44,568 bases of DNA from a virus (IMGVR_UViG_2740892423_000027); one strand, 5' to 3'; shown: positions 235 to 27,675, counted from the stretch's first letter. Translations and numbers: made by a program. The notes: generated by a model from the letters alone, not told the origin.

Positions 235-941
235 GGCCCTACCCCCAACTTACCCAATAGGCCGGTTATTGCTTCCGATACAGAGCTCCCGAGTGGCGTG
301 TTGCCAAGAGCATTGGCGGTATTAGTCCAGGATGGGTCGGTTACCATATCCCCGGCGCCAATCTTGTTTAAAAAATTGTTCACAGCCTGCTCTGCACCAT
401 TATCGGTTATCAGTGGCTGCTCGAAATCCCATATCCATGAACGCTGTGGTAATGGATCATTACCAGAAGTGATGTCCCTCACGACACGCAAAATGCAGTT
501 GCTATAGATAACGGATGGGGTGGCGACGATAAACGTGCCGCCTAAGTTAGAATGCGCCTGAAGGACAGACTGCAAAGCACTCATAGTGACGAGCTTTGTC
601 ATCGCCCCGGTGTTTTCATTGACCGGGGCCTCCATTACCAACGAAACGCGCAAAGGCTGAGCAAGCAAGGCGTTCGCAGCTACCACCTGGTTGGCGAAAG
701 GGTATCTGGCAATTTCATAATCAACCATTGTGGCGCCCTGAACCGGGCGCCAGTGGCAGAAATATTTATCCAGATCGGTTAGGTTTATGGCTCCTCCAAG
801 CAGTCCCGTAACAAAGCTCGAGCTCTGCGTCAAAGCGACGATCGGGAGCATTCCTCCAGGAATGGCCTGCGCTATCCCTCCGCAAAGTATTACTGGGGAT
901 ATTTCAAAACCCAGCTTATACATTTCACGTGTGAATCCCAT
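231..941 (-). CDS. Phage tail-associated structural protein (hypothetical)
   Basis: 236-aa ORF tightly packed (4-nt overlap) with downstream virion gene; Gly/Thr/Ala-rich composition typical of virion proteins; no specific family recognised. Confidence 0.45.
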   Translation of the reverse strand: MGFTREMYKLGFEISPVILCGGIAQAIPGGMLPIVALTQSSSFVTGLLGGAINLTDLDKYFCHWRPVQGATMVDYEIARYPFANQVVAANALLAQPLRVSLVMEAPVNENTGAMTKLVTMSALQSVLQAHSNLGGTFIVATPSVIYSNCILRVVRDITSGNDPLPQRSWIWDFEQPLITDNGAEQAVNNFLNKIGAGDMVTDPSWTNTANALGNTPLGSSVSEAITGLLGKLGVGP

Positions 942-2758
942 TACCTCGCCCCCAATTGCGCTGAAGTTACCACTGCATTCCCACCGGTATTGTTATAGAT
1001 CTGAATGACTGTGCTCTCAGAAACTCTGCTACCAGCCCCTTCTTTTTGAGATATAGCAGAAATGAGTTTCGCGATAACCTGAGGATCATTGAGATTCAGT
1101 TTCTGATTCTCATTAAATCCAGTAGTTTTAACCACATGCCGAATATACTCAGCGGTATTATTTTCCTTAGGAGGAGCCCATTTTCTTGCAATATCTCCTA
1201 CCGTATTTATTCCTTTAGCGCCATACATTTGAAGTTGCTTTGTCGCCGCCAGTACGCCTTCATCCAGCGTTGGGAAGACGGCAAATTTACCGCTTCTCGT
1301 ATTCTCGCTGCTATATCCTTCAGCCCACCGCAGATTTCCCGGATTATTAAATCGATCTGCAATAGTCCTGTTTCTGTCGGAAGTATTTGCAGGTGTGGGA
1401 TCAACAGCTTTAACGGTTCCATCTTCAAAGAAGCGCCTAACACCCTTGAGCCAGCCCCATACATGCGGGTCATCATTGCTTCCAGGAGTATAGGATTTTC
1501 CCGTTTTCGGATCGATGATGGTGCTTGGGCTCAACATCGTTGACCCGGATGATATATCCGCAGTAGAGATACTCGCTTTCCCTGTTACCCAATCAATAAC
1601 CTTGCCAATTAGATTTCCCATTTTCTCTACTTTGTCCATAAAGTTGCTTACATCTGTGGAAAATTCAGGAGAAGCGAGGTAATTACCGAACCGCTCAATG
1701 CCGCCGGCCAGCGCATCAATCCACTTGCCGAGTTCGGGTGATTTCAGAACGGTATCGATCGCGCCTGACAGCGCATCAGACAGCTTGCTCAGTTGCGGCG
1801 TGAGTGGCCCCAGGCCGCGCACAAACGTGTTCCTGATGCTCTGGCTGCTGTAGTCGAGCTGGACGTTAAAATCCTGCCACTGGCGCGCCTGCTGGTCGGT
1901 AATTTGCAACATACGCGCATCCTGCTGCGCGCGCTTCTCCATGGCGGTGATCTCTTCATCGCTCATGTTTTTGAAGCGGTTCAGGTCGTCCAGTGTAAAG
2001 AAGTTTGTCAGGCCGTGCGCCTGTGCGCCCTGCAGCGTGCTGCCGTTCTGCACGAAGATATCGCGCGCATTACGGATCATCTGCGGGAGCAGTTTGGCCG
2101 GGTCCTGGTCGGGGTTGTTAATCCCCATCGCCTGAAACGTCCAGCGCTTCGACAGGTCCATTTGCGAATCGCGGATAGCGCCCAGCGTACCCGCCGGATT
2201 ACCGAGTGCTTTCTGGTAGTTTATGGCGGTGGAATCAAGTGCGCCGATACTCGTCCCAAGCCCGAGAGAAGTAAACCGCTGGGCACCGGTGGTGGCAGCC
2301 AGCCGGTTGATGCCGAACAGGCCGCCAACGCCAAGGACGCCGGTAAATATCCCGACAATGCCACCCCATGACAGAAGGCTGGCCGTCGCTTCCTTGATAT
2401 GCCCTGCCAGCGATTTAGCGTCTTTCGTCGCATCGCTGAGGAATCCCTTCGCAGAGCGAGTACTTTTGTTGAATTCGTCCTGCTTTTTCTTCGAGTCTTC
2501 CAGGTTGGTATTGAGCCGATCGATACCACTGTTGATAGTCAGAATGGCCTCGGCCACGGCATTAAACTCCGCGCCTAACTCCTTCGTCTCACCTTTGGCC
2601 TTTTCGGTCTGCTTGCTGCTTTCGCCAATACCAACGGCAGCTACCCGCCAGGCTTCCGGTAAATCATCCAGCGCGCTCTGGTACTCGCGAAACCTTTCCA
2701 TAAACGCGACAAACTTGTCGTCATTTACGTCAATGTCGACGATCGACTTAGCTACCAT
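941..2758 (-). CDS. Tape-measure-like or ejection protein with hydrophobic Gly-rich segment
   Basis: Long ORF; likely start MVAKSIV at 2758 preceded by AGAGG; coiled-coil-like N-terminal half; Gly-rich hydrophobic stretch GGIVGIFTGVLGVGGLFGI; follows putative sheath/tube/chaperone genes. Confidence 0.45.
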   Translation of the reverse strand: MVAKSIVDIDVNDDKFVAFMERFREYQSALDDLPEAWRVAAVGIGESSKQTEKAKGETKELGAEFNAVAEAILTINSGIDRLNTNLEDSKKKQDEFNKSTRSAKGFLSDATKDAKSLAGHIKEATASLLSWGGIVGIFTGVLGVGGLFGINRLAATTGAQRFTSLGLGTSIGALDSTAINYQKALGNPAGTLGAIRDSQMDLSKRWTFQAMGINNPDQDPAKLLPQMIRNARDIFVQNGSTLQGAQAHGLTNFFTLDDLNRFKNMSDEEITAMEKRAQQDARMLQITDQQARQWQDFNVQLDYSSQSIRNTFVRGLGPLTPQLSKLSDALSGAIDTVLKSPELGKWIDALAGGIERFGNYLASPEFSTDVSNFMDKVEKMGNLIGKVIDWVTGKASISTADISSGSTMLSPSTIIDPKTGKSYTPGSNDDPHVWGWLKGVRRFFEDGTVKAVDPTPANTSDRNRTIADRFNNPGNLRWAEGYSSENTRSGKFAVFPTLDEGVLAATKQLQMYGAKGINTVGDIARKWAPPKENNTAEYIRHVVKTTGFNENQKLNLNDPQVIAKLISAISQKEGAGSRVSESTVIQIYNNTGGNAVVTSAQLGAR

Positions 2759-2881
2759 TGAAGAAACCTCTTTCTTTGAGCGCGGCGAGAAGGTAGCGCT
2801 GCCGGTACTGCGCCGGGCTGGCATACTCCTCGCCGGTGATCTCCCTTATCACCTGCCAGAAGCCCTCATTAGACGCCCAGT

Positions 2882-3454
2882 CTAAGAGGGTATAAATGAC
2901 GTTTCCGGCGGGGCATTCTGGGTCGGGGTATCGGTAACCGGCTTCGACGTCTGCAACGAATCGCGGAACGCCGTAACGCTCGATGAGGTTAGTTGCCCAT
3001 CGTACATTTTGATCACCGTTCCCACGGTCGGCGCGATCAGGTTTGCCTTCTGAATAGCAGAGGAAACCATAAAAAAAACCACTTCGCCTTCGACCTCGCG
3101 ATACTCATCAGGGGCGATAATCCCCTGATTGAATGCCACCTCAAGGGGCGTGGTTTTCCACTGGCCGCCGACGTTATGGATAACGACCGTCAGTCGCTGA
3201 ATTTCATCTACGATGTTCGGGCCTGCCCGACCGTTATCGATTTCCGCTTTCAGGCTCTGCCTCAGCATCATCGCGGCGATTCTGGCGGCGCCAAGACCAC
3301 CCACCTGCGAGATGAATTTTGTGAACAGGTTCCCCAGCAGGATGCAGTGTTCTTCCACCACCTCATAGGGGAATGGCGTCACATGCAGGTATACGATCGA
3401 GCCGTCTTCGCGGGTAACGTTGGTGACCAGATTCAGTTTCTTGTCAATTTTCAT
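2882..3454 (-). CDS. Phage tail assembly/structural protein (hypothetical)
   Basis: 190-aa ORF in virion gene string between putative tube and tape-measure-like genes; no family recognised. Confidence 0.4.
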   Translation of the reverse strand: MKIDKKLNLVTNVTREDGSIVYLHVTPFPYEVVEEHCILLGNLFTKFISQVGGLGAARIAAMMLRQSLKAEIDNGRAGPNIVDEIQRLTVVIHNVGGQWKTTPLEVAFNQGIIAPDEYREVEGEVVFFMVSSAIQKANLIAPTVGTVIKMYDGQLTSSSVTAFRDSLQTSKPVTDTPTQNAPPETSFIPS

Positions 3455-3457
3455 GCA

Positions 3458-3895
3458 TTACACCCACATGTTGTCGTTGGTGACCATATAGCCGCTGATG
3501 GTTACCACAAAAGCCGGGTCCATCCCGCTGAAAGCCAGCTCGTTGAAGTTGACCAGATAGCAGTTGAGCAGCGTGATATTGCCGAACGTCGTTGCATCCG
3601 GCGTTACCACGATTTCACCCAGCGACGTGTCGGTTAAAAAGCGTTGCCGGTAGCTTTCGCCCAGCCCCTGGGTTTTCAGGAGATGCACGGTCAGCGTTAC
3701 CTGCTGATACGGCGCCTGGCTGCCGACGGTTCCGGTCATCGTAGGGATGATGTCGGTCGCCGGGCCATCCGGACGCAGGCTAATGCCGTCCTTTGCCAGG
3801 TACGACGCCGAAACGTTCAGCGCCGGTGTGTCCGTGACGGAAAGAGCCCCGCGTACGCGGTTAAGGAAGCCCTGCGGTACTAATGGGTTCGCCAT
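3458..3895 (-). CDS. Putative tail tube-like protein
   Basis: 145-aa ORF directly downstream of the 464-aa putative sheath gene with 3-nt spacing; assignment by size and order only. Confidence 0.3.
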   Translation of the reverse strand: MANPLVPQGFLNRVRGALSVTDTPALNVSASYLAKDGISLRPDGPATDIIPTMTGTVGSQAPYQQVTLTVHLLKTQGLGESYRQRFLTDTSLGEIVVTPDATTFGNITLLNCYLVNFNELAFSGMDPAFVVTISGYMVTNDNMWV

Positions 3896-3898
3896 TTT

Positions 3899-5293
3899 TT
3901 ACGCCCCTACAAAGTTCGTTACGTTCACGTTAAACGTGATGGATTCGAAGCCGCGGCGCGGCGTCATGACGGCGCTCAGCCCGTTATATTTGCCTTCCTG
4001 GTAATCGGAGGGGTTCAGGCTGTTGTAGTTACTGAACGGCACGGCGTTGATCACGGCGTTGCCGGCGTAAGTGCCTTTGTCATACTCGGTGTTGAAATCT
4101 TCCTGCGTAAGTTGCGTGTCAATGACGCGACCGAGGATCAGCCCGTAGCTGATGCCATTACGCAAGGTTTTCAGAGCACGACGCTGCAGGCGGTCAATGC
4201 CCTTCTGCTCGTAGTACAGCGGGTTAACGGTGGTGTTGGAGCCGTTGATAATTTCATTCGCCAGGTCGAGCTCAAGGTTGATCGCCGTCCACGCCACCGA
4301 ATACCAGTAGTTGAACGGGTTACCGTCGAGCATGCGGCCGGTGAACAGCACTTTATTGCTGAGACCACCTTCTGCGCCGGTGCCGACGTAGTTGATGTTG
4401 TTGTCCTGCAGCGATTTCAGCAGTGCGCTGTTACCTTCCAGCGGGTACTCAGTCAGGCCGTACATAAAGCGGTACGACATCGGCGGCACCATGTTGCTCG
4501 ACCCCGGGTCGTTTGCCAGGGATGACTGGAACGGGCCGGCCATGGAAAACTCGCTCGCCGGAATATCCGGAGCCTCGACGCCGGCAAAGACAGTTTTGTA
4601 TTTCGTCGCAGTCCACGCTTCATAGGTCGCGATCGTTGTGGTGACAAAGAAGTAAACCAGACTTCCCGGCGAAGTATAGAGGCTGGTCAGGGTTTTAAAT
4701 TCATCGACCGAATCCCATTCGCGCGGCACCAGATAGGAGAAAAACTTCTGGTAGGTGTTACCCAGGGAGACGTCTTCAGCAATGAAGGTTGTCAGCGCTG
4801 CGACAGCTGCCTCCATGGACACATCGCCCAGTTCCAGCACATAAACAGCCCGCGTTTTACCCTGGGCCCAGAACGAAGTATTCATCTGGGAAATTTCGGT
4901 CTGCACTACCGTTTTTACCGTTCCCATTGCCGTTGCGGTTCCTGGGTTGGTCGTCAGCGGATAGGTGAAGGTGTTGGCTCCTGTCACCGTAGCGGTATAG
5001 GCGCCATTGTACCCCGCCGGAGTCGCGCCGGAGATGATCACCGGGACCTGCGACCCGTTAGTCCATCCGTGAGCGGCAGCCAGCGTGACGGTTACCACGC
5101 CAGTAGCCCAGGCGAGCGTCGAGATGGTTTTCGCCGGTGCAAGGATGTCGGCCAGGTCGGTTTCACTGGTCAGCAGCTGATATTCACCGGCATTCAGCGT
5201 CGTGCCGCCCATAGAAATCATCGCCCCGGACTTTAACAACTGCGAGGGCTTCGGCGGATTCGTCACCGACACGTTAATATTAACAATTGCCAT
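3899..5293 (-). CDS. Putative tail sheath-like structural protein
   Basis: 464-aa Thr/Gly/Ala-rich ORF preceded by four small connector-sized genes and followed by a tube-sized gene; assignment by order and size, no motif confirmed. Confidence 0.35.
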   Translation of the reverse strand: MAIVNINVSVTNPPKPSQLLKSGAMISMGGTTLNAGEYQLLTSETDLADILAPAKTISTLAWATGVVTVTLAAAHGWTNGSQVPVIISGATPAGYNGAYTATVTGANTFTYPLTTNPGTATAMGTVKTVVQTEISQMNTSFWAQGKTRAVYVLELGDVSMEAAVAALTTFIAEDVSLGNTYQKFFSYLVPREWDSVDEFKTLTSLYTSPGSLVYFFVTTTIATYEAWTATKYKTVFAGVEAPDIPASEFSMAGPFQSSLANDPGSSNMVPPMSYRFMYGLTEYPLEGNSALLKSLQDNNINYVGTGAEGGLSNKVLFTGRMLDGNPFNYWYSVAWTAINLELDLANEIINGSNTTVNPLYYEQKGIDRLQRRALKTLRNGISYGLILGRVIDTQLTQEDFNTEYDKGTYAGNAVINAVPFSNYNSLNPSDYQEGKYNGLSAVMTPRRGFESITFNVNVTNFVGA

Positions 5294-5297
5294 TTAC

Positions 5298-6236
5298 TTA
5301 TTTCTCCGGGTCAATGGACGGAATTGCAGACGTGATCAGCTGGCGCGCTAAGTTACGCATCCGTTGCTGGTAATAATTGATTTTAAATTTGATGGTCTTA
5401 CGCATGGCGATGATGTTGAGCTCGTTCTGAGTGACTCGCTCATCCTGCACGACGGGAATATTCATGATCCCCATCTCCGGGGCATCGCCGGTCGTGTAGT
5501 CCTGCACATACCGCACAAAGTCTTCAATGCTGGCGTTACGCAGGCCGGTGACCGAAAGCGTGACATCTTCCGTTACCAGCTGATACTGGTTTTGCTTCTC
5601 GTCCAGATAGAACGCGCCGGCGATCGGTGACGTGTTACTGCATTTCACTGTCGCATAGGGCGGCGAAAGGTTCTGCGTTGAGAGCATCGCCGGGAACATC
5701 GGCATGTACTGATTCAGGGCCAGCCAGATCGGCAACGAGCTCGACACCACTACGTCAGAGAGGTCTATGTCATCCGCAGAGTTGATGATCTGCGACCGCA
5801 TGTGCGGGAAAATTGCCTCTCCGGTGTAGTGGTACAGGTTCGCCGGCTCATTCAGCCCGGTACGCCGGGAGAACGAGAACTGAACGCCAAAAAACTCGCC
5901 GATGTACAGCACCTCTGACCCGATGTCGTTAAACGGGTCGATGTCCGCCTGCGCGGTGAACGTCACCACGTTGCGATCGTACAGTTGCTCGTCGTCCTGA
6001 ATGGTTTCGGTCGTCAGGTGCAAATAACCTTTCACATCTACCGTATCCGGCTCATTGTTCGGATCGTCTGACAGGACCGAGGCTTTCACCCAGAACACGA
6101 AGCCATCGAGCGGAAGTACCTTTCTGATGTACTTCGTGAACGTCACCACCTGGAACCGGCTCAGATCATCCAGCCCCTGTGTCAGGGTAGCGTTAAGCTC
6201 GGTTTTGGCGTTCTGTAACTCACTCAGGGAAGGCAT
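5298..6236 (-). CDS. Phage structural protein (hypothetical, neck/tail-completion region)
   Basis: 312-aa ORF in packed minus-strand virion operon; no family recognised. Confidence 0.4.
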   Translation of the reverse strand: MPSLSELQNAKTELNATLTQGLDDLSRFQVVTFTKYIRKVLPLDGFVFWVKASVLSDDPNNEPDTVDVKGYLHLTTETIQDDEQLYDRNVVTFTAQADIDPFNDIGSEVLYIGEFFGVQFSFSRRTGLNEPANLYHYTGEAIFPHMRSQIINSADDIDLSDVVVSSSLPIWLALNQYMPMFPAMLSTQNLSPPYATVKCSNTSPIAGAFYLDEKQNQYQLVTEDVTLSVTGLRNASIEDFVRYVQDYTTGDAPEMGIMNIPVVQDERVTQNELNIIAMRKTIKFKINYYQQRMRNLARQLITSAIPSIDPEK

Positions 6237-6654
6237 TCAGCACCCCGCTTACCCAGGCTCGCATAGCTGCCTGATAGGTTCCTGTGTCAATGAACGAAGG
6301 GCGTGGCGGCCCCTTTTTGCCTTTAAAGCGCTTCGATATACCCTCAAGCGCGCGGCGCGTTGGAACACCAGGGAGGCCGTTCATCTCGGTGTTATCGAGG
6401 AAGCCGACAAAGAGATCGTGAACTTTGGACATTGACTCAGCGAGCGGGTCTTTTGCCGGCGGCGCGCCGGCGAACATGTTTTCAAACGCTGCGGCCAGGT
6501 CTTTGCTCATCAGATCAGCGATGTCGTTCCCGTAGCGGTCAAAGAACGTCTGCATAATCTGATACCTCGCTTCCAGCTCTTCCGCTACGCTCCCCGTCGT
6601 GGTGTCCTCGTCCTCGTAGGGGATATCGATAACGCCCAGATGAAAGGTGATCAT
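6220..6654 (-). CDS. Head-tail connector candidate (hypothetical)
   Basis: ORF with ATG at 6654 overlapping upstream stop (ATGA coupling); the longer frame to 6711 would overlap the upstream gene. Confidence 0.4.
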   Translation of the reverse strand: MITFHLGVIDIPYEDEDTTTGSVAEELEARYQIMQTFFDRYGNDIADLMSKDLAAAFENMFAGAPPAKDPLAESMSKVHDLFVGFLDNTEMNGLPGVPTRRALEGISKRFKGKKGPPRPSFIDTGTYQAAMRAWVSGVLNAFPE

Positions 6655-7079
6655 GTCAGACCCCACAGGCTCCCGAACTGCTGAGCGAACATCAGGTAGC
6701 GACGGCCCCACGGGTCCTGGAGCATCTGCAGATCTGCCAGCGACAGGTCTTTGAAGAAATCAGGGACCAGGCGCTGTGCGCTGGTAGAGTTATCCCCGGC
6801 TCCCGTGATAACCCCGGCTTTGAAGTCATTCAGCCCATATTGTTTACGGAACTCAGCAAACACAGCCTCTGTCCCGTAATTGATGAGAAACGATGCCCCA
6901 AGGTTATAAACCGCGATGCTGTACATGTTAGGCATAACGCACGCGATGTCCGGGTTAACCCATTCAATGGCGCCGCCATAGGCGAGAGAAAAAGACGGCG
7001 AGTCGTCGGGAACCTGGTCGGGGGTGATGCCCATATCAGATCGAACGAATTCGATGAATCCCGACAGACTGGTGGTCAT
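6651..7079 (-). CDS. Head-tail connector candidate (hypothetical)
   Basis: 142-aa ORF with 4-nt overlap to upstream gene; position between capsid and tail genes. Confidence 0.4.
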   Translation of the reverse strand: MTTSLSGFIEFVRSDMGITPDQVPDDSPSFSLAYGGAIEWVNPDIACVMPNMYSIAVYNLGASFLINYGTEAVFAEFRKQYGLNDFKAGVITGAGDNSTSAQRLVPDFFKDLSLADLQMLQDPWGRRYLMFAQQFGSLWGLT

Positions 7080-7558
7080 TTCTTCTTGCTCCCGGCTTTC
7101 GGCGTGACAATTTTTTCGTTGATGGTCGGGTCGTCTGAATGGTCATCGCGCCCCTTGGCCTGCTCTGCGCTGAATTCCATGTCACCTTCGTAGCCGATAC
7201 CGCTTTCGCGCAGTGTGTTATCCAGCGCGGCGACGGATGCCTGCCGGCGGTTATGAGCCCCGCGGGTCAGATGACCATCGTTATCGCGAATGGTTTTCTC
7301 AATAACGCTGGCGGAAACGGGTTTGTTGATGCTGTAGCACAGGCCGACAAATGCCTGGCTCTGGTCGATTTTGGTTGAGTCAACCAGACCGTAAACCTGA
7401 TGATGCTGAATAACCGCTTCGACTTCTTCGGTCGAGCCATCCAGAACCTGCATCTGTGAGCCGTGCTCAATGGGGATCTGGCGAAGGCGCCCGGTTTCCA
7501 GCTGGCGGAAAGTGAAGATGTGGCGCTGCTTGGTAGTGTTGGCGATGTACAGTTTCAT
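7076..7558 (-). CDS. Head-tail adaptor candidate (hypothetical)
   Basis: 160-aa ORF downstream of major capsid gene; coupled to following gene. Confidence 0.4.
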   Translation of the reverse strand: MKLYIANTTKQRHIFTFRQLETGRLRQIPIEHGSQMQVLDGSTEEVEAVIQHHQVYGLVDSTKIDQSQAFVGLCYSINKPVSASVIEKTIRDNDGHLTRGAHNRRQASVAALDNTLRESGIGYEGDMEFSAEQAKGRDDHSDDPTINEKIVTPKAGSKKK

Positions 7559-7630
7559 TGTTTACCCTTCGTAAAAAAGCCCCTGCACAGCGAACCATGC
7601 AGAGGCTTAAGCACTTCTCAATTTCGCGTT

Positions 7631-8662
7631 TTAGGAGCTGTATGCCATCGACAGGATGGTGATAGCTTCCGGACGGACTGCCCAGCCAGCCGTAGAGCGC
7701 ATTTCTGACAGCACGTCGATAGCGCCCCCGGGGATTGGCGTCGGGATTTCCATCGGTGCCGCCATGTCGGTGAACATCAGGGCATTAGCCGCCAGAGACG
7801 GGCTCAGTTTGGCGAATTCGTTGGTGTTCACGGTGGAGTTAACCATCGGCACTTCCACTTCCGGGATGGTGATAACCACCGCGTCAGTACCGCCGGCACC
7901 GGCGCCGATCAGCGTGTCGTCGTACACCCAGTCAACCTGAACATTCGCGCCACGGAGAACCTCTTTCACGGTGCCGCCGACGGTATCAGTACCGCCGCCA
8001 GGACGCTGATAAGATGTCAGCTGAACGATCTGCTGAATCTCCATCGCGCCCAGCACTCGCTGCGGCCCGAGGATAACAACACGCTGCTGGCGACCCAGTT
8101 GCATGGTGCGGGTCAGCGCGGCCTGTACATGGCCCAGCAGATAGACAGCCATCTGTCCATGGTCGTAGGTCAGCACAGTGGTGTTGCTGTTGCTGTCCGG
8201 CGGCAGGGTTTCGGTGGTCGCGCCTGCGGTGTTCAGCAGACCTTCGCCGCCTGCCGGGTTCATGCCGTACAGCAGCGCAGAACGCAACTGCTGGAAGATG
8301 CCCTGACGCATGCCGAGACGCTGAGCTTCTGGCAGTGCCACGTTCCAGTTACCGGCCGCCGCGGTGTCGTGGTGATCGTAGATACCACGGCAGCGGAACA
8401 GGTAGGTTGGAGTGGAGATCATGCGCGCCTCGAGCGCCACGCTCGGCAGCTGGTTGGCGTTGCCGGACTGGCTGGAGGTTACCTGGGTACGAATATCCAG
8501 GCGGCGCATATAAACGTACTGGTCGCCTACGCCAAGGCGGACCTGCGGGTTACCGCTGGCGATGGTTTCGAACGCACCGGACGCCTGCTGGTAACCAATG
8601 ATCAACTCCGGCGCAATATACGACGGGTTGACGATGGTGTAGCTGGGGGTAATTGCAGCCAT
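7631..8662 (-). CDS. Major capsid protein
   Basis: 343-aa ORF immediately after scaffold-like and decoration-like genes; size and position typical of a major capsid protein; strong RBS region; family not verified. Confidence 0.6.
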   Translation of the reverse strand: MAAITPSYTIVNPSYIAPELIIGYQQASGAFETIASGNPQVRLGVGDQYVYMRRLDIRTQVTSSQSGNANQLPSVALEARMISTPTYLFRCRGIYDHHDTAAAGNWNVALPEAQRLGMRQGIFQQLRSALLYGMNPAGGEGLLNTAGATTETLPPDSNSNTTVLTYDHGQMAVYLLGHVQAALTRTMQLGRQQRVVILGPQRVLGAMEIQQIVQLTSYQRPGGGTDTVGGTVKEVLRGANVQVDWVYDDTLIGAGAGGTDAVVITIPEVEVPMVNSTVNTNEFAKLSPSLAANALMFTDMAAPMEIPTPIPGGAIDVLSEMRSTAGWAVRPEAITILSMAYSS

Positions 8663-8675
8663 TTAAAGCTCCCGA

Positions 8676-9536
8676 TTAAAGTAAGACCAGCGCGCAGCTG
8701 TCGGTGTTGTTCCAGGTAAGGAAGCCCGTAGCGCTGTCATAGCTGACAGTTTTAGAGTTCCCACTCTCGATGGAGATGACTTTCACCGGCAGGGTGATGT
8801 CTGCCTGAGCCACAGCGCCGATAGCGCCCTGCGTGGTCGCGGAGCCGCCCGGCGCGCTGGCAGGCGCATAGGTGAAGGTTGTCGTACTCGGTACGGTCAG
8901 CACAACGACGGTGCCGTTATAGGCAGCCGGATCTACGCCGCTGATCTTCACGTACTGGCCTGCAGTCAGACCATGTGCAGAGGCAGTGGTGGCGGTGGCC
9001 ACGCCATTCGAGTAGGTAACAGCGGTCGTGTCAATGTCAGCACCGGAAAAAGCCGCCGCGGCTGCGGTGGTCACCTGGTTATTGACGAAGTCCCACGCCA
9101 GCGGCGTTTTCACCGATGCGCCAGCGGTTCCCAGTGCGACCACCTGCGCTGAAGCTTTCAGCGGAACGCGCATGTTGGAGCCAAGGCGATAGAATGAAAC
9201 GCTCATGCCGGACGCATACAGCGGAACTGGTGATTGCGGAGTGGTAAGCCCGTTGTGGGCCTGGTTGAAGACGGTGAAGCCTTCGAGCTCAGCCAGTGAT
9301 ACAGCGCGACGAATAGTCGACCCGCGAGGGCTGGAATTCACGCCGGACAGCAACTCGGCAACCGGCAGGCCACCCCACAGCGGTTTGGTTTCGGTGGCGG
9401 CGACAGTGCCGGAAGCCAGGTTAAAGCGGTTTGCCGGATCATCCAGAGCAACACCCTGAATGAAGCCATCAGACTGCACACCGAAGGAACCAGCGGCATT
9501 CGTGGTCGCCATCGGGTTAAGAGATAAATTAGCCAT
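8676..9536 (-). CDS. Capsid accessory/decoration-like protein
   Basis: 286-aa Ala/Thr/Gly-rich ORF between scaffold-like gene and major capsid gene. Confidence 0.4.
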   Translation of the reverse strand: MANLSLNPMATTNAAGSFGVQSDGFIQGVALDDPANRFNLASGTVAATETKPLWGGLPVAELLSGVNSSPRGSTIRRAVSLAELEGFTVFNQAHNGLTTPQSPVPLYASGMSVSFYRLGSNMRVPLKASAQVVALGTAGASVKTPLAWDFVNNQVTTAAAAAFSGADIDTTAVTYSNGVATATTASAHGLTAGQYVKISGVDPAAYNGTVVVLTVPSTTTFTYAPASAPGGSATTQGAIGAVAQADITLPVKVISIESGNSKTVSYDSATGFLTWNNTDSCALVLL

Positions 9537-9551
9537 GCTTCAGAGCTCCCG

Positions 9552-11168
<1,617 letters not shown>

Positions 11169-11177
11169 TTAATGCTC

Positions 11178-11999
11178 CTATGCTGCTTTCATGGACTCCA
11201 GGAACTTGCGGCCCTTCTGGGTCAGCATGTCCTCGGGAATGCTGCGGAGGTTGTACAGATAGGTGACGTAGCACCGACAGAAAACCTCTTCGCCAGGCTG
11301 CGTAATTTCGTCGAGATAGCCGGCAGGGCCAGCTTTGACATAGCCATTTTTCTGCGCCCAGTTCCCGCGGATGAGATAGATCAGCTTGTCCCTCTCCTTG
11401 TGATCTTCCCGGTAGTCGTACCCTGGCTGGCGCCAGTGGCTATGCCACTCGGCAGCAATCGCGTTGTTGCCCGTCGCGATGATGTTGTCGATATTGGCGA
11501 TCAGCTTATGGCTCTGGTCAATCATCACGCGGCGCGCTTCATAGTCCACCTTCTCGGCGGCCTTCTGAATGTGCGCCGCCGTCTCCCGCATCGTTCCCTG
11601 AATGCCGGTCAGCGCAATGCTGTCTGCTGAGGGAATGCTGCTGGCCCATCCGCTAAACCGCGACAGAGTAGTGTCGATGGCTTTCTTGCGATTCAGCTTT
11701 ATCAGGTCAACGCTGGCCAGGATGCGGCGATCCAGCTCGCTGCGTAACTTCGGCTCCATGTAGTTCAGCGTGAAGCGTGAAAGCCCCTTGTGGCGCTCCA
11801 GCGCTCCAGCCTTGCTCACCTGCAGGTCATAGGTCTTACGCAACCGATCGGACACCATGCTCATGTAGTCGTCATCAGTTTCGCTTTCGGCCGCTTGCCG
11901 GATAATGGCCTGCCATTGCTCCAGCTCCTGCCGCGAGGTGTAGCCATTGCGCAGAAAGAACTTCACCGCCTCGCGTACGGTGCGCGTGAAAGTCTTCAT
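11178..11999 (-). CDS. Head morphogenesis protein (minor head protein, Mu F / SPP1 gp7-like)
   Basis: 273-aa ORF directly downstream of portal with 4-nt overlap; conserved position of F-like morphogenesis genes; family assignment by position and weak recollection. Confidence 0.45.
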   Translation of the reverse strand: MKTFTRTVREAVKFFLRNGYTSRQELEQWQAIIRQAAESETDDDYMSMVSDRLRKTYDLQVSKAGALERHKGLSRFTLNYMEPKLRSELDRRILASVDLIKLNRKKAIDTTLSRFSGWASSIPSADSIALTGIQGTMRETAAHIQKAAEKVDYEARRVMIDQSHKLIANIDNIIATGNNAIAAEWHSHWRQPGYDYREDHKERDKLIYLIRGNWAQKNGYVKAGPAGYLDEITQPGEEVFCRCYVTYLYNLRSIPEDMLTQKGRKFLESMKAA

Positions 12000-13411
12000 A
12001 GCATCATCCCGCCGCCGGGCTCTTCATCCCGTGGCTGTTCAGGCCGGTTAGCCTTTAACGAGTCGATATCGAGATCAAGTCGCTGCGGGAACAGGCTTTC
12101 GTTAGCGTTCGCGTTGGTCTGCGCCCACTCGATAAGAAGCGCGCGGTTCTCATCATCCGTGTTGACCTGCGGGAGAAGGACTTCCAGCATGCTGACGATG
12201 GCCTTAAAGCGGATTTCGTCGACCTTCACTTTTTCGCTTTCCGGCTCTTTCAGGGATGACGGCCAGCGATATTCGAAGTTGTTAATCCATGAGGAGAAAT
12301 ACAGGCTGTACGTGTTTTTAAGCTCCGGGAAGTCAGCACGCAGAGAATTGAAAAACTCAATGCTCCAGGCGCGATACTGGCAAATACGGATGAAATAGTC
12401 ATACAGCGGCTCAAGCCACTCGCGGATGTTGTCGATGTAGACTGCAACAGATCGAGCGTCTTCCGTCCCCTCGCCGAAGCCCTGGGCGAATGTTTCCGAG
12501 TTCAGAATGATAGCCGGCATGTCAGCTGCCGCAGCGATATTCTCCAGAATGTGATTCCGGGAGGAGTCGAGCGGCTTTTCCAGGTTGCTCAGGTCGATGG
12601 ATTCGATGCTGTCATTTGCGCCGATCTGCAGGACCTCGCCTGTCTTCCCTCGCTTCAGCATCATTCGTTTGATGCCGCTGAGCTTTTGCATCATGTTGTT
12701 GACGACTGAGCTCGGTCCCTGAATCTTCGTTACCAGCAAGCCACCCTTCACGGAAACCATGTCATCGGTGCGCATGGTCTGGATGAAGGATTTCAGCGGG
12801 AACAGAGCGCGCTGGTAAACGCTGCGACCGGTAAAGCCAAAGGCAGCAGAGTTATAGGCCAGATAAATCGGGTCCTCGTTCTGTTGCACAACACAGCGGG
12901 ATTTGTGATACGGCTTGCCCGCCACTCTGATCCCGTCGACCTTCTGAAAGTCCTGCGCGTTCGGATCCTGGTTCAGGACGATGCTTCCGGCAGTGTTCAG
13001 CGGGTCGAGAATGTTGAATGTCACGTTGTGCTTATACAGCGTGCGGTAGTCCACCGCAGAGGACGGCTCCTGGTTATCAACCAGCATTGCGATCGCCGAA
13101 ACACCGTAAATGCGAGAGATGCGCGCCGCATTAGCGATGTGCTTATCGGCGCCCAGTGCTTTCCACTCCCGCTCAAATGCATCGCGGAGACGCTGCTCAA
13201 TGCCATACGCCTGCGAAATGTGAACCGTGCGCGACTCGTTCATCGCCATCTTGATCGGGCGATCTACCATTTTCCCGCCCAACGGGTGGAAGAGGTAAAT
13301 CGTTTTGCAGGTCTGATAGCCAGCCGACATACCCGGCTGAATGTCATCGCTGTCCAGGAGCGTGATCAGCTCCGGCGAGCAACTGCCGATTGCGATATCA
13401 TCTTCGTTCAT
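11996..13411 (-). CDS. Portal protein
   Basis: 471-aa acidic protein immediately downstream of terminase large subunit; conserved gene order. Confidence 0.6.
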   Translation of the reverse strand: MNEDDIAIGSCSPELITLLDSDDIQPGMSAGYQTCKTIYLFHPLGGKMVDRPIKMAMNESRTVHISQAYGIEQRLRDAFEREWKALGADKHIANAARISRIYGVSAIAMLVDNQEPSSAVDYRTLYKHNVTFNILDPLNTAGSIVLNQDPNAQDFQKVDGIRVAGKPYHKSRCVVQQNEDPIYLAYNSAAFGFTGRSVYQRALFPLKSFIQTMRTDDMVSVKGGLLVTKIQGPSSVVNNMMQKLSGIKRMMLKRGKTGEVLQIGANDSIESIDLSNLEKPLDSSRNHILENIAAAADMPAIILNSETFAQGFGEGTEDARSVAVYIDNIREWLEPLYDYFIRICQYRAWSIEFFNSLRADFPELKNTYSLYFSSWINNFEYRWPSSLKEPESEKVKVDEIRFKAIVSMLEVLLPQVNTDDENRALLIEWAQTNANANESLFPQRLDLDIDSLKANRPEQPRDEEPGGGMML

Positions 13412-17784: not shown

Positions 17785-17860
17785 TGGTGCTGGTTAACGG
17801 ACTTGAACCGCTACCCATTCGCTTACAAGGCGACTGCTCTACCATTGGAGCTAAACCAGC
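17785..17860 (-). tRNA. tRNA-Thr (anticodon UGU), phage-borne
   Basis: Manual cloverleaf: 7/7 acceptor pairs, 4-bp D stem, anticodon stem with loop CUUGUAA, T-loop UUCAAGU, encoded 3' CCA; folded by hand only. Confidence 0.7.
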
Positions 17861-17865
17861 ATGTT

Positions 17866-17940
17866 TGGCGGGACAGCGTGGACTCGAACCACGATAAGAA
17901 GGTTAACAGCCTTCCGTAATGACCTTTATACGACTGACCC
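17866..17940 (-). tRNA. tRNA-Asn (anticodon GUU), phage-borne
   Basis: Manual cloverleaf: anticodon stem GAAGG/CCUUC with loop CUGUUAA, T arm CGUGG-UUCGAGU-CCACG, encoded CCA; one mismatch each in acceptor and D stems. Confidence 0.55.
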
Positions 17941-21699: not shown

Positions 21700-23076
21700 T
21701 CATACGTCAGCCCCTTGTGCATATCGTCTGCCACGTGCAGCAGGTGCATTTGATGTTGTGCAAATCTGTCTGGCTTCATCCTGGTCACATGCAACAAAGT
21801 GTCCGTTGCAGAACCGCTGGTAAACCGTACCAAGCGAGCCAAAACGGTTTTTCGTCACGATGATTTCAGCAAATGGCGCGGCGCTACTGTTCTCGTCATA
21901 TACCGCTTCCCGATAGAGCATGATGATTGAGTCTGCGTCCTGTTCAATGCTTCCAGAATCACGCAAATCTGCGTTTGTCGGGCGTTTGTTTGGTCGCTTC
22001 TCAACATCGCGCGAAAGCTGACTCAGGGAGATAACAGGCGTTTTCAGGTCTTTCGCCATCGCCTTCAGGCTTCCGGAGATGTGAGCAATTGCGAGGTCGT
22101 TGCGGTCTGCTTTCGGCTTCTCAATCAGGCCAAGATAATCCGCCATGATGAGTGACAGATTTGGATTTTCCTGTTTGTGCCGTTCTGCGATTGAGCGTAT
22201 TTCTTCGACCGATAACCGCGAGGCATCGACAACCCATACATCCAAATCTGCAAGCTGACTCATGCCGTTAGCAACACGTGCCCAGCCTTCGTCATCCATC
22301 GCTGCAGGATTTCGCAGCACACTAACCGACATCCTCCCGGCGTTGGCAATGCTTCGCTCTGCAATCTGCAATGCGCTCATTTCCATTGAGAAAATCAATA
22401 CCCCGCGCCGGACGTCAGAACCAGGAATAACGCGGCTTGCAACGCCTTCGGCAATCTTCAGCGCCAGTTCGGTTTTCCCCATACCAGGACGAGCAGCGAT
22501 TATCACAAGGTCTTCTGCGTTCATCCCTCCGGTGATGGCGTCAAGTTCTTCGATTCCGGTCTTCAGGGTATCTGACTCTTCTCCGTTCCTCAGACGCCTG
22601 TCAAGCGTGTCGGTGTAGTCAGTGATGATTTCCCCTAACCGTACAGGTTTAACCTCGTCACGGGGCTTTCTGATGGCTGAAAGACGCTTTACAAGCTCGT
22701 CCATCGCCTGACTCGATGTATCGATGGTTCCGCTCTGAATTGGTTCACGCATTTCATCCATGATTTCCAGCACCAGACGGCGGTGATAGTTATCCGCGAC
22801 CATTCCGGCATATCCCTTCAGGTTTGCGGCGCTCGGGCAGTTTTTGCTGGTCATCAGGATTGAGGTGAAATGCTCCTCTCCGCACGCCTCGGCAACCATC
22901 AGCGCGTCGATTAGGTTTCTGTTTCTCGCCTGCTTGCGGATAACCTCGAAGGCTTTCCGGTAGAGCGGAATTGAAAACGCTTCCGGCTCCAGCGTTGCCA
23001 GAACGTCGCTGGCGGTTGGAGTTAATCCACCAATCAGCAGGCCACCGATAACGCTCGCTTCGATATCCTGTCTCAT
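21700..23076 (-). CDS. Replicative DNA helicase, DnaB family
   Basis: 458 aa; Walker [13 protein letters not shown] and RecA-like C-terminal domain; overlaps O-like gene stop (ATGA). Confidence 0.85.
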
Positions 23077-24020
23077 GCTATCCCCCTGTCTGCAAACTTC
23101 CCCTCCCGTACTCCCGTTAACGAATCTTCCCTCAACAGGTAATCAAAATCAGCTATCCAGCCCGTGTCGTTGTCTCCGAAGTAAAACGGCTTGGCCTGAT
23201 GCACAAACGCCCTGACATACGCTCTGAAACCGTCCACGTTTGGCGTTTTCAGTTGCGGGATGATTTTCTTCAGGCGGCGTTTGCGTTTCTCGTTGACCGC
23301 AACAGCGTGTGGAAGTCTGTCACCGACTTCGGTGTTGTAGGCGTTCAGGAAGGATTCGTAGTCGATTCGTTCTGCCTTTCGACGTTCAGGTTTAACCTGC
23401 CCATCACCTCCCCCATTGGGGGGTAGGGGGGTATTATTTATATTCTTGTTAATACCTTCTTGTTCATGATGTGCGGTTGTTTGTGCGGCTTCATGTGCGC
23501 TTTCATGTGCGGCATGCACTCTGAAAGCCGCGCCATTGCTGGCTTCGTCATGTGCGGCATCATGTGCGGTTGTTTGTGCGGCTTCATGTGCGGGTGAATC
23601 GTCCATTTTTTGAGCATATTCATGGTAATTTGTGATGGTAATCACACGACCTTTTTGCTTCTCTCCATCAATGGTGATCATCCCCTCTTTCACAAAAACC
23701 TGAAGCATCCGCTCAACCTGATCACGGCTTGCTGGCTTGCCATGCCTGTCGCATAACTGAAGACCTAAATCAGCTGCTGTCACAACCAGTTGACCGGGTT
23801 GCAGATGCCATTCATGACCTTTGAAATTCGCTTTGTATGGCTTTCTGGCGGCATTCAGGAGAAGGTTTTCCCACAGGGTGCGAAGATAAACATCTTTCGC
23901 CCATGACTGTTTCAGAATGCTCCGGTACAACGGAATGTAACCAGTTTTCTGGTTCTCCATCCTGTTGCTCCTGCGCTCGTGTGCGGCGCTGAAATCGTAG
24001 ATTTTTGCTGTATTGCTCAT
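23073..24020 (-). CDS. Replication initiator, lambda O-like, with internal iteron-encoded repeat
   Basis: N-terminus [10 protein letters not shown] parallels lambda O MTNTAKILNF; central repeated HEAAQTTAH peptide encoded by DNA iterons; coupled to helicase gene. Confidence 0.7.
23465..23593. repeat. Iteron cluster: about 8 direct copies of (C/T)ATGTGCGG inside O-like gene (candidate replication origin)
   Basis: Copies near 23468, 23483, 23493, 23505, 23549, 23562, 23575 and 23585; two longer units catgatgtgcggttgtttgtgcggcttcatgtgcg and catcatgtgcggttgtttgtgcggcttcatgtgcg. Confidence 0.6.
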
Positions 24021-25061: not shown

Positions 25062-25769
25062 ATGGTTCAGAATGAAAAAGTGCGCAAAGAATTCGCCCAG
25101 CGGCTAGCGCAAGCCTGTAAAGAAGCTGGTCTTGATGAACATGGTAGGGGGATGGCCATAGCCCGTGCCCTTTCTCTTTCGTCCAAAGGCGTTAGCAAAT
25201 GGTTTAATGCTGAGTCTTTACCGCGCCAGGAAAAAATGAATGCGCTTGCGAAATTTCTAAACGTTGATGTTGTTTGGCTTCAGCACGGCACTTCGTTAAA
25301 TGGAGCGAATGATGAAGATACTCTTTCATTTGTTGGCAAATTAAAAAAAGGGTTAGTGCGCGTGGTTGGTGAGGCAATTCTTGGTGTTGATGGTGCCATC
25401 GAGATGACCGAAGAGCGCGATGGGTGGCTCAAAATTTATAGCGATGATCCAGATGCCTTTGGTCTTCGTGTGAAAGGAGACAGCATGTGGCCCAGAATAA
25501 AATCAGGAGAATATGTACTCATTGAGCCTAACACCAAAGTATTCCCGGGTGATGAGGTGTTTGTCAGAACCGTTGAAGGACACAACATGATTAAGGTTCT
25601 TGGCTATGACAGAGATGGAGAATACCAATTTACAAGCATTAACCAGGACCACAGGCCAATAACGTTGCCTTATCATCAAGTAGCAAAGGTGGAGTATGTG
25701 GCTGGTATTCTGAAGCAATCTCGCCATCTGGATGACATCGAGGCAAGGGAGTGGCTGAAAAATTCGTGA
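25062..25769 (+). CDS. cI: CI-type repressor with LexA-like S24 autopeptidase domain
   Basis: 235 aa; N-terminal HTH region; C-terminal GDSMWP catalytic-serine motif of S24 peptidases; divergent from cro. Confidence 0.85.
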   Translation: MVQNEKVRKEFAQRLAQACKEAGLDEHGRGMAIARALSLSSKGVSKWFNAESLPRQEKMNALAKFLNVDVVWLQHGTSLNGANDEDTLSFVGKLKKGLVRVVGEAILGVDGAIEMTEERDGWLKIYSDDPDAFGLRVKGDSMWPRIKSGEYVLIEPNTKVFPGDEVFVRTVEGHNMIKVLGYDRDGEYQFTSINQDHRPITLPYHQVAKVEYVAGILKQSRHLDDIEAREWLKNS

Positions 25770-25892
25770 CTTCATCGTCACATAGCTGGTAGCCAGTGGC
25801 CTGAAGAGACGTTTGGGTAATTCCAATTGTGATTAATAAAAAACCGATAGTGCAACATGTTATTGTAAATTGTTGATATAGCAAGGTATCAC

Positions 25893-26795
25893 ATGAGCCA
25901 AAATCTTGATTCAACACTAGAAACATACATTTCTTGGCAGTTAGAGCAATTTAAAAATAACTTTTTCCCAAGCTGCGACGTCATAGCGTACTACGGTGGT
26001 ATCTTTCCATGGTCAAAAGAAGTTTACCAACCAAAACTTGAGGCTATTGGGGAGATGGCTAACAGTCGTACCAATAGATTTCTAGTTATTATACTCAATA
26101 CAAATGGTGGCTCTGTTGAGTCTGTGGAAAAAATGGTAGAAATTACAAGGCATTTCTATCAAGAGGTATATTTTATCATTCCAGATATGGCCATGTCGGC
26201 AGGCACAATATGGTGTATGTCTGGAGATAAAATTTACATGAACTATGCTTCTTCATTAGGCCCCATTGACCCTCAAGTGCAATCCTCTGACGGTAAATGG
26301 GTTCCTGCTTTGGGATACCTTGATAAAGTTGAAGAAATGATTACTAAATCCAGAGAAGGAACCATTACCCAAGCTGAACTAATGATGCTTAGTCAGTTAG
26401 ATCTTGCGCACTTAAGGAGATACGAGCAAGCCAGAGAGCTATCAATAGACTTGCTTAAGAAGTGGCTTGTAGAGTATAAATTCAGAGAGTGGACGGTTCA
26501 TCAAGGTAACACAAAACGAGGAAAGCTAGTTTCCAAGAGGGAAAAAGAAGCAAGAGCTAAAATGATCGCTACCGCTCTTAGTGACAACGGAAAGTGGCAT
26601 TCTCACGGAAGAACGATAGGAATAAATACTCTTATCAATGACTTAAGAATTAAAGTAGAAGACTTTACATACGACAAAGATTTTAGCATGGCGTTAAAAA
26701 ATCTGCACAACGTCATTAATGAATACATGTATAAGACAAATCGACAGGTTCTTGTTCTGTCTTCATTCCCCTTCTCAGAACAAAGTGAGTCATAA
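25893..26795 (+). CDS. ClpP/S49-clan serine protease-like protein (rex-position cargo)
   Basis: 300 aa; LNTNGGSVESVEKMVEITRHF...IIPDMAMSAGTIW aligns with the ClpP/SppA NSPGG...AASMG catalytic-Ser region; AT-rich relative to flanks; immediately downstream of cI. Confidence 0.55.
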   Translation: MSQNLDSTLETYISWQLEQFKNNFFPSCDVIAYYGGIFPWSKEVYQPKLEAIGEMANSRTNRFLVIILNTNGGSVESVEKMVEITRHFYQEVYFIIPDMAMSAGTIWCMSGDKIYMNYASSLGPIDPQVQSSDGKWVPALGYLDKVEEMITKSREGTITQAELMMLSQLDLAHLRRYEQARELSIDLLKKWLVEYKFREWTVHQGNTKRGKLVSKREKEARAKMIATALSDNGKWHSHGRTIGINTLINDLRIKVEDFTYDKDFSMALKNLHNVINEYMYKTNRQVLVLSSFPFSEQSES

Positions 26796-26966
26796 ATGAG
26801 CAAAGACAAATCACTGACACAGCAAGTGGCAGAAATACTTAGCAAGCAAAAAGTTAGCGAGCAAGGTAAAATGATTCAATCATTAAAGAACAACGGATTG
26901 ATCAACAAGCCTGTTTTTACTTTGGCTTATGGACCTGATACTACAGTCTGCCAAATGCACCAATAA
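26796..26966 (+). CDS. Small ORF coupled to protease gene (hypothetical, 56 aa)
   Basis: ATG at 26796 directly after protease stop; product MSKDKSLTQQVAEILSKQKVSEQGKMIQSLKNNGLINKPVFTLAYGPDTTVCQMHQ; followed by terminator. Confidence 0.35.
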   Translation: MSKDKSLTQQVAEILSKQKVSEQGKMIQSLKNNGLINKPVFTLAYGPDTTVCQMHQ

Positions 26967-26976
26967 CAAAACCCCA

Positions 26977-27002
26977 CCCGGCCTCAGCGCCGGGTTTTCT
27001 TT
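26977..27002 (+). terminator. Rho-independent terminator after cI-protease cassette
   Basis: CCCGGC-CTCAGC-GCCGGG hairpin followed by TTTTCTTT. Confidence 0.7.
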
Positions 27003-27172
27003 GCCTCACGATCGCCCTCCCATATTTAATAGCCGCAAATGTGGTAAACCGCGAACCAACTCACCAGCAATACCCCCTCCAACTACAGACCAATCTGCAG
27101 CATTTACAAAAATAAATTTCCTTATATATCAAAATTATATCTCGTTGCATTAATAAATCACAAAATTTTCGT

Positions 27173-27205
27173 ACCAATAGTTCTTGATAATGTCGAACTA
27201 TTGGT
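27173..27205. promoter_or_regulatory. OL/pL-region inverted repeat ACCAATAGTTC..GAACTATTGGT
   Basis: 11-bp perfect arms with 11-bp spacer; overlaps a TTGATA -35-like hexamer; upstream of nutL and N. Confidence 0.45.
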
Positions 27206-27257
27206 TCAATATTGTCACATCAGCAGGACGCTGGAAGCCAAACGGAACAGACTGGCA

Positions 27258-27285: not shown

Positions 27286-27402
27286 CTACGTGGCTGAAAA
27301 GCCAGATCACCCAACCACATAAGCTGTGGGATGCAATGCCGAAGCAACCGTCTCAGGAGGGGCTTCGAGATTGCATCGCCAAAGTTTATTCGGGAGGAAT
27401 CC

Positions 27403-27675
27403 ATGTCCAGAAAAACAGAATTTAAAGGCACCGCAGCTTCTCGCCGTAGAGCTCGTCGCGCAAATTTGCAAAGTCAGGAGGCGATCAGCTCCGACAAGCT
27501 ACACAGGCCAACCCCTTCACGAGTGGTCTTGCAATGCAAGCGCAAACCAGCAATGAGAGCAGAAGTGATAACTCTGACAACGTTGACCAGAAAATATGAA
27601 GGTTCAACTTGTCTTCCAAATGTAGCTCTTTACGCGGCAGGCTACAGGAAATCAAAACAACTGACAGCAAGGTGA
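27403..27675 (+). CDS. N: N-type antiterminator (arginine-rich motif protein)
   Basis: ATG at 27403 after GGGAGGA; N-terminal arginine-rich motif TAASRRRARRA; first gene of early-left operon downstream of nutL. Confidence 0.65.
   Translation: MSRKTEFKGTAASRRRARRANLQSQEAISSDKLHRPTPSRVVLQCKRKPAMRAEVITLTTLTRKYEGSTCLPNVALYAAGYRKSKQLTAR

Follow-up and report, generated by a model that had tools for sequence, protein, structure and literature searches.

The window analysed here is a 44,568-nucleotide stretch of DNA from a lambdoid prophage of Escherichia coli (IMGVR_UViG_2740892423_000027), in which a cassette of two open reading frames (ORFs) lies on the plus strand directly 3' of the repressor gene cI. 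By sequence and predicted structure the first gene encodes a soluble serine protease of the SDH family with a ClpP fold, while the second encodes a small partner that is found family-wide and is predicted to form a hairpin of two helices followed by a conserved tail that is intrinsically unstructured. Comparison of homologous loci indicates that the two genes move together, along with a leader and a terminator of their own, from one immunity region to another and into genomes that are unrelated. There is about an even chance that this two-gene mobile module is a self-contained proteolytic exclusion or abortive-infection cargo of lysogens, held in the slot that rexA and rexB occupy in phage lambda, and on the sequence evidence such a function is plausible.

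The gene order in the window is O, CII and Cro on the minus strand, followed by CI, the cassette, a terminator and N on the plus strand. The pair therefore occupies the exact place of lambda rexA-rexB, with the position of the N gene fixing the cassette between cI and the PL/N region. This is the rex position that the first-pass annotation of this DNA had proposed, and cI, both ORFs and the terminator were all found where it had placed them.

The protease

The 300-residue product of the first gene matches Pfam PF01972 (SDH-type ClpP-like serine proteinase) over residues 64–199 with 41.0 bits against a gathering cut-off of 31.3, and this domain is present in all close homologues according to the precomputed table. 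The NCBIfam model NF047768 (Clp_like_SDH) matches residues 60–149 only, with 54.5 bits (1.1e-14) and short of the equivalog cut-off of 250, and PHROG 11747, a family of unknown function, matches the protein end to end (2e-99). In RefSeq it goes under "SDH family Clp fold serine proteinase". The label "serine dehydrogenase(ase)" used in databases presumably arose by mis-expansion of SDH, for Ser-Asp-His. The family is large, with 4334 homologues at E <= 0.001. Models of related families score lower: CLP_protease PF00574 gives 17.5 bits, under its gathering cut-off of 20.2, and so does not assign the protein to the ClpP family, NfeD1b_N gives 1e-6, below its cut-off, and TIGR00706 (SppA) gives 20.2 bits against 155 (3.6e-4), so that by sequence the protein is not a member of SppA.

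The AlphaFold model of the protease has a mean predicted local distance difference test score (pLDDT) of 89.9 and a predicted template modelling (TM) score of 0.87. Searching the PDB with this model using Foldseek returned SppA as the best match (E = 7e-6), together with ClpP and the NfeD protease 1510-N; a search of viral models returned giant-virus "serine dehydrogenase proteinases" at a TM score of about 0.55. The family profile aligns Ser102 with Ser97 of 1510-N and with the ClpP serine, setting AMSAGT of the protease against AASAGT of 1510-N and AASMGT of ClpP. The aligned position is that of the nucleophile, because the S97A entry 6m4b has Ala there. The first-pass annotation had read the region GGSVE...DMAMSAGTIW as a catalytic-serine neighbourhood and proposed a ClpP/S49-like fold; both proposals are borne out by the profile and structure searches and by the conservation of Ser, Asp and His.

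In an alignment of 60 homologues, reaching down to 49% identity, S102, H238 and K145 are invariant (60/60 each) and D126 is present in 59/60. The predicted catalytic triad is Ser102/Asp126/His238, in the order Ser-Asp-His as in PF01972. We take this order to be the defining feature of the Pfam entry, and Asp126 to stand at the position of the ClpP histidine. The protein has a pI of 6.3, is predicted to be soluble and has neither a hydrophobic or transmembrane segment nor a signal peptide. The ratio of nonsynonymous to synonymous substitution rates (dN/dS) is 0.045 in comparison with a 91.6%-identical allele from E. coli 2015C-3121 (locus L002 of our comparison set).

With ClpP (S14), SppA (S49) and NfeD 1510-N the protease shares the ClpP/crotonase fold and a serine in the same G-x-S-x-G-like turn. 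It differs from them in its sub-threshold scores, in the order Ser-Asp-His rather than Ser-His-Asp and in an extra helical C-terminal half that bears His238; unlike them it lacks an ATPase partner and has neither a membrane anchor nor a signal peptide.

The partner protein

The second ORF encodes a basic, hydrophilic protein of 56 residues with a pI of 9.3. AlphaFold (pLDDT 72) predicts helices at residues 7–17 and 20–32 followed by an unstructured tail, GLINKPVFTLAYGPDTT, and this tail is the sole conserved part of the protein. Members of the family begin with a helix, to which a second one ending in K-x-G-[LIV]-h is added; next comes x-K-P-x-[YF]-x-L-[PA], often followed by x-x-D-T-I-G-[KR]; the version in the window reads ...MIQSLKNNGLINKPVFTLAYGPDTT. 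PHROG 28875 matches the protein with 2e-30. Close relatives are few and all enterobacterial, and the 89 relatives found in databases are all free-standing, unnamed proteins of 51–111 residues with no Pfam domain.

We surveyed 80 loci with relatives of the protease, one genome per species, and clustered all neighbouring ORFs. The sole recurrent neighbour was an ORF of 55–80 codons on the same strand, just 3' of the protease stop. Such ORFs fell into two BLAST clusters at 61 loci, and all of the remaining loci but one had a similar ORF on inspection. When three E. coli loci are counted in, 82 of 83 genome loci from many phyla have a partner ORF behind the protease, with the strand always shared and a gap of −27 to +35 nt among the gaps examined. 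A profile built from non-enterobacterial partners only ranks the ORF of the window first of 494 (E = 3.2e-6, with the next at 0.023); this match is not circular and shows that the ORF did not arise by chance. The first-pass annotation was therefore right to couple a 56-residue ORF to the protease, and it is a real conserved gene, but the gap is 0 nt and not 1 nt, with the protease stop TAA abutting the partner start ATG and both ORFs in the same frame.

Of 80 IMG/VR loci, 47 have a partner that the profile detects. Those that it misses at a protease identity of at least 44%, and with downstream sequence present, all have an ORF of 58–81 codons at −27 to +14 nt, whereas the SDH proteins below 33% identity in IMG/VR are without a partner ORF. 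SDH-type proteases of 25–32% identity in phages of Shewanella (MZ568827), Gordonia (BeeGee, MW601219) and Porphyromonas (BK068108-12), loci L162–L171 of our set, are also without one. The partner therefore marks a subfamily and not all of PF01972.

No natural fusions of protease and partner were found among the homologues, the longer of which bear N-terminal or internal extensions. Read-through of the stop codon at 26793–26798 would yield a fusion of 357 residues; this is probably incidental because the spacing differs in other alleles. Compared with the L002 allele the partner has a dN/dS of 0.31, and its dN is 3–4 times that of the protease. The maximum hydropathy over 19 residues is 0.49, and there is no membrane, amphipathic or pore-forming hydrophobic segment. 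A weak ArgR-like match of the ORF (E = 0.005) lies below the cut-off. Matches of the partner profile to designer pentatricopeptide repeat proteins in the PDB were rejected as spurious, being sums of about 10 insignificant helix-turn repeats with E of about 20 each.

Mobility of the cassette

Homology with loci L001 and L003 (99.9%) begins at position 25790 and homology with L002 (91.6%) at 25808. It ends at 27010 in L001 and at 27023 in L002, giving a unit of approximately 1.2 kb with the terminator at its 3' recombination boundary. Three different E. coli cI genes precede the cassette, namely that of the window, that of L001 and L003, and that of L002.

The converse arrangement is seen in Stx2a phages, where the cI region has 94–97% DNA identity to that of the window. 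Homology ends at 25818–25821, and positions 26976–27020 are shared at 87% behind a different cargo, which consists of a DUF3024 protein (PADLOC candidate PDC-S43, 7e-42) and a NYN-domain protein. The expectation of the first-pass annotation that this is a swappable cargo slot is thus confirmed from both sides, by one cassette behind three cI genes and by one cI with two cargoes. In the Stx2a phage Stx2_EH0505 (LC616031, L085) bases 3331–4677 correspond to the slot at 25820–26975 of the window, and the NYN-domain protein has 285 residues. The DUF3024 and NYN pair may be another lysogen-expressed defence pair.

In L002 the 91.6% allele lies behind the third cI and a small membrane protein, near HicAB. 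A hairpin with a T-rich tail stands immediately upstream of the leader in this locus, and the leader may therefore also hold a promoter. The small membrane protein is a 53-residue "transmembrane anchored protein" (5660–5821) between cI and the cassette, and the HicA/HicB pair (7191–7780) lies on the opposite strand just past the cassette; several small accessory modules are stacked at this slot. Locus L003 is part of a 111-kb plasmid named for mcr (pSM107_MCR, NZ_CP130669), whose bases 1–13074 hold a complete lambdoid early region from NinB to exo, including the cassette; the plasmid may be a phage-plasmid or a cointegrate.

Distribution and neighbouring genes

Homologues of the protease with approximately 50% identity are spread patchily across Proteobacteria, Bacteroidota, Acidobacteriota, Planctomycetota and other phyla, which suggests horizontal transfer. 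No third gene is conserved with the pair: the 138 nearest neighbours in diverse genomes fall in 160 Pfam families, none of which occurs in more than 4 loci. The commonest neighbour family is HTH_3 (4/138), and the S24 domain occurs in 2/138. Among the neighbours are parts of type I and type III restriction-modification systems, SngC, DrmD, BrxH, a dGTPase, JetC and PADLOC candidate families.

The 63 distinct genes upstream of the pair in IMG/VR contigs include 29 repressors with S24 and helix-turn-helix (HTH) domains and 8 more that match Phage_CI_repr. Prophage alleles of Klebsiella, Enterobacter and Cronobacter, with 62–68% identity, lie directly behind repressors of several types, and some upstream repressors are HTH proteins of 155 and 137 residues without an S24 domain. 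The position after the repressor recurs in L001–L003, L086–L091 and L174–L177. Among the contexts examined for enterobacterial alleles all were prophage repressor slots and none was a phage-inducible chromosomal island (PICI).

Organization of the locus

The features of the cassette and the flanking context genes are listed in Table 1. The repressor matches Peptidase_S24 (4.4e-16) and HTH_3 (1.2e-5) in Pfam and PHROG 4, "transcriptional repressor" (1.2e-48). The guanine plus cytosine content is 0.35–0.41 over the gene pair and 0.44–0.51 in the flanks, so the first-pass description of the protease gene as AT-rich holds in direction but the difference is modest. The spacer between cI and the protease is 123 nt long, and a Shine-Dalgarno-like AAGG in the leader lies 7 nt 5' of the protease ATG. 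The spacer contains no plus-strand terminator and no unusual fold (z = −0.31), and no promoter-like site passed in a scan of the leader. The cI gene is the probable origin of a lysogenic transcript that would run on into the cassette, and the absence of a terminator between cI and the protease supports such read-through.

The terminator hairpin (26976–26995) begins 10 bases past the partner and has a stem of 7 bp, 6 of them G-C, followed by UUUUCUUUG. Its folding energy is −14.2 kcal/mol, with z = −2.83 relative to shuffled sequences. Rfam and tRNA scans gave no match in the cassette region.

Table 1. Coordinates of the cassette and of its context genes in the window
Feature	Position	Strand	Basis and remarks
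CI-type prophage repressor, HTH_3 + Peptidase_S24	25062..25769	+	Pfam, PHROG; context gene, outside the mobile cassette
Cassette leader	25790..25892	+	5' boundary of the mobile cassette at ~25790-25820, from homology breakpoints
SDH-family ClpP-fold serine protease, 300 aa (predicted)	25893..26795	+	Pfam, NCBIfam, PHROG, AlphaFold/Foldseek, residue conservation
Small partner protein, 56 aa	26796..26966	+	Family-wide ORF conservation, profile, PHROG 28875
Intrinsic terminator at cassette end	26976..27004	both strands score	Hairpin with a T run on either strand; tIMM-like position
Antiterminator N gene	27331..27675	+	Context; PF25694 N_peptide 2.4e-32; the corresponding gene of L001 is annotated as N peptide

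Between the terminator and N, an 11-bp inverted repeat at 27173–27213, ACCAATAGTTC ... GAACTATTGGT, overlaps a promoter-like site TTGATA-18-AATATT, which is the only such site on the plus strand upstream of N. From its sequence the inverted repeat is likely to be the OL/PL operator-promoter. Elsewhere in the prophage two adjacent tRNA genes, for Thr (tgt) and Asn (gtt), lie on the minus strand at 17785–17940, and the homologue of replication protein O (23073–24020, minus strand) has a His/Ala-rich internal repeat past its Phage_rep_O domain.

Loss of the protease in E. coli carriers

In five of the 20 carriers in E. coli the partner is retained while the protease has been lost or broken, by three deletions, one ISEc52 insertion and one frameshift; the reverse was found in none. 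The asymmetry is not significant, as the probability of 0/5 events in the small ORF is P = 0.42 for targets of 900 and 171 nt. These losses therefore rule out only that the partner is a constitutive toxin held in check by the protease. Retention of the partner without the protease had been considered as evidence for a toxin, and was dropped as 5 against 0 is not significant given the gene sizes.

The three deletions are in E. coli FHI_NMBU_10 (L084, 4179–5184) and in strains 48 and JNEC-KY176, where an intact partner follows cI and only the last ~13 bases of the protease ORF remain before the partner ATG. In E. coli CP52E (L172, 2323–4452) ISEc52 interrupts the protease after ~122 nt, and in UCPROB-002 (L173, 301–1375) the protease is split by a frameshift that may be an assembly error; the partner is intact in both.

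Comparison with known systems

RexA and RexB of lambda are expressed in lysogens and abort superinfection. The present pair has the same position and strand between cI and the terminator, PL and N, and likewise consists of two genes that are swapped as cargo; Stk of 933W is another cargo of the cI-to-N slot. There is, however, no relation in sequence or fold, as Pfam, PHROG and NCBIfam give protease families only. RexB spans the membrane several times, whereas no membrane segment is present in either protein of the present pair, and the effector here would be a protease.

FS_HP_SDH_sah consists of two genes, encoding a hypothetical protein (HP) and an SDH_sah protein, on PICIs. The PICI-borne system reportedly blocks phages, and we know of no mechanism for it. 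The present pair is probably of the same type: both combine an SDH_sah/PF01972 protein with an adjacent domain-less protein on a mobile element related to temperate phages. The protease qualifies as SDH_sah by the Pfam PF01972 domain from which the system takes its name. The setting differs, FS_HP_SDH_sah being described on PICIs and the present pair lying in a prophage immunity region. A gene model of this name in DefenseFinder has matches in oral phage contigs (PMC13532340). In a search of the literature on the SDH family, FS_HP_SDH_sah and ClpP-like defence, we found only passing mention of the DefenseFinder gene name.

Discussion

If the pair is an exclusion or abortive-infection cargo, it would be transcribed in lysogens by read-through of the cI transcript, from a promoter within its own leader, or both, and its two genes would be translated in a coupled manner through the abutting stop and start codons. 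The tail of the partner could dock in the substrate groove of the protease as a pseudosubstrate or bait, and so either keep the protease inactive or set its specificity. A superinfecting phage might then remove or displace the partner, or bring the true substrate, upon which the freed protease would degrade phage or host proteins; the infection would fail and the lysogen population would be protected. Tolerance of the partner without the protease in three genomes, and the knocked-out protease in two more, are counted in favour of this explanation.

A broader version, which we hold tentatively and consider on balance somewhat unlikely, is a pan-bacterial two-component proteolytic switch. In this switch the protease would be blocked by the Y-x-L-[PA]-x-x-D-T-I-G tail as a pseudosubstrate until a phage cue freed it to kill or arrest the cell without an ATPase, with lambdoid prophages of Enterobacterales using the switch as a rex replacement. 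Such a switch would be a new defence mechanism and not a variant of a characterized one.

Several observations weigh against an exclusion function. The pseudosubstrate role of the tail is something that we infer, and the invariant Lys145, 43 residues past the serine, makes a Ser/Lys dyad of the S49 and NfeD kind possible. PADLOC v2.0.0 (5027 models) matched neither protein to any family at E values of up to 1, and the name FS_HP_SDH_sah puts the hypothetical protein first, whereas the protease comes first here. Many of the non-phage loci of the pair lie among housekeeping genes, and the asymmetry of the losses in E. coli lacks significance. The cassette is also rare in E. coli (17–20 of 5426 complete genomes) and INPHARED holds no phage with a close homologue, which would explain why no phenotype has been reported.

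An alternative that we regard as distinctly unlikely is a toxin-antitoxin-like addiction or stabilization module with no anti-phage role, in which the protease would act as toxin and its small, labile partner as antitoxin. The gene architecture is compatible with a type II toxin-antitoxin system, being a compact two-gene operon whose small member evolves faster, at the dN ratio given above. The orphan partner is tolerated and the protease repeatedly inactivated, and the settings of the pair, on mobile elements and in chromosomes, are varied. There is precedent for a serine protease as toxin in IetS, a subtilisin-like (S8) protease. IetAS is described as a serine-protease toxin with an AAA ATPase antitoxin that acts in plasmid stabilization and against phages (PMC13069673), and it resembles the present pair as a two-gene mobile module with a serine protease as presumed toxic effector. 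It differs in that the partner of IetS is described there as an AAA ATPase, whereas here a ClpP fold is combined with a 56-residue partner. Against the toxin-antitoxin explanation, a large first gene is the rarer order for type II systems and the loss asymmetry is not significant; moreover, it is not exclusive with defence, and so overlaps with the exclusion explanation.

The roles could also be reversed, with a latent small protein becoming toxic after site-specific cleavage of its tail by the protease, an explanation to which we give a slim chance. The concept is established for Pepco/Trypco and EACC1, small hypothetical proteins beside defence proteases that carry a conserved site close to where they are cut (PMC12642450). 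The conserved Y-x-L-P-x-x-D-T-I-G of the tail could be such a cleavage site, and a small gene left on its own would do no harm in the absence of the protease. However, the proteases of those systems are trypsin- or caspase-like and fused to Avs/STAND sensors, whereas the present protease has no sensor domain. Pepco forms beta-barrels and EACC1 pores, while the present partner is basic and hydrophilic, lacks a pore-forming segment at the hydropathy given above, and is predicted to be a 26-residue helical hairpin with a tail.

That the pair regulates lysogeny in the manner of ImmA, the protease cleaving the resident or a competing repressor or some other early regulator and so tuning induction, is very unlikely. 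ImmA is a COG2856 metalloprotease without a small partner, and in ImmA/ImmR of ICEBs1 and Gram-positive phages the protease gene adjoins and is co-oriented with the repressor gene, as it is here. Placement right behind the repressor is very consistent in Enterobacterales, and extends to repressors that lack S24. The present pair differs from ImmA/ImmR in being found also far from any repressor, and it is common without one nearby, as the HTH_3 and S24 counts among the 138 neighbours show. The repressors that it does accompany mostly have an S24 autoprotease of their own (29/63), one cassette stands behind three unrelated cI genes, and sister phages hold unrelated cargo in the slot. This is the second proposal of the first-pass annotation, a regulator of the CI S24 pathway, which is unlikely since in many phyla the pair is present away from any repressor. 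Finally, an ordinary phage or cell protease present here by chance, of the head-maturation type or an SppA/NfeD-type protease of membrane proteins, is hardly credible: weak matches exist (PHROG 53 1.4e-6, NF045542 2e-5, and TIGR00706 and NfeD1b_N as above), but none comes near its family cut-off, the location is the immunity region and not a morphogenesis module, the protein has no transmembrane segment or signal peptide, and neither the obligatory small partner nor the occurrence outside phages fits.

Conclusions

Relative to the searchable literature, three findings are new: the small partner and the motif in its tail are conserved from phylum to phylum, the pair is consistently placed behind the repressor in Enterobacterales, and the cassette has defined boundaries. 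The novelty is limited, because annotation of the gene family exists and a system composed in this way has probably been catalogued. If the exclusion explanation is true, lambdoid prophages, including relatives of Stx phages, protect their hosts by means of a protease module in the rex slot, and a function could be assigned to a large, widespread family that is still labelled "serine dehydrogenasease". The partner and its tail motif offer an experimental handle on how an ATPase-independent ClpP-fold protease may be silenced and released, and the occurrence of the same cI with either the SDH pair or the DUF3024 and NYN pair is a clean natural example of the swapping of putative defence cargo at a fixed prophage hotspot.

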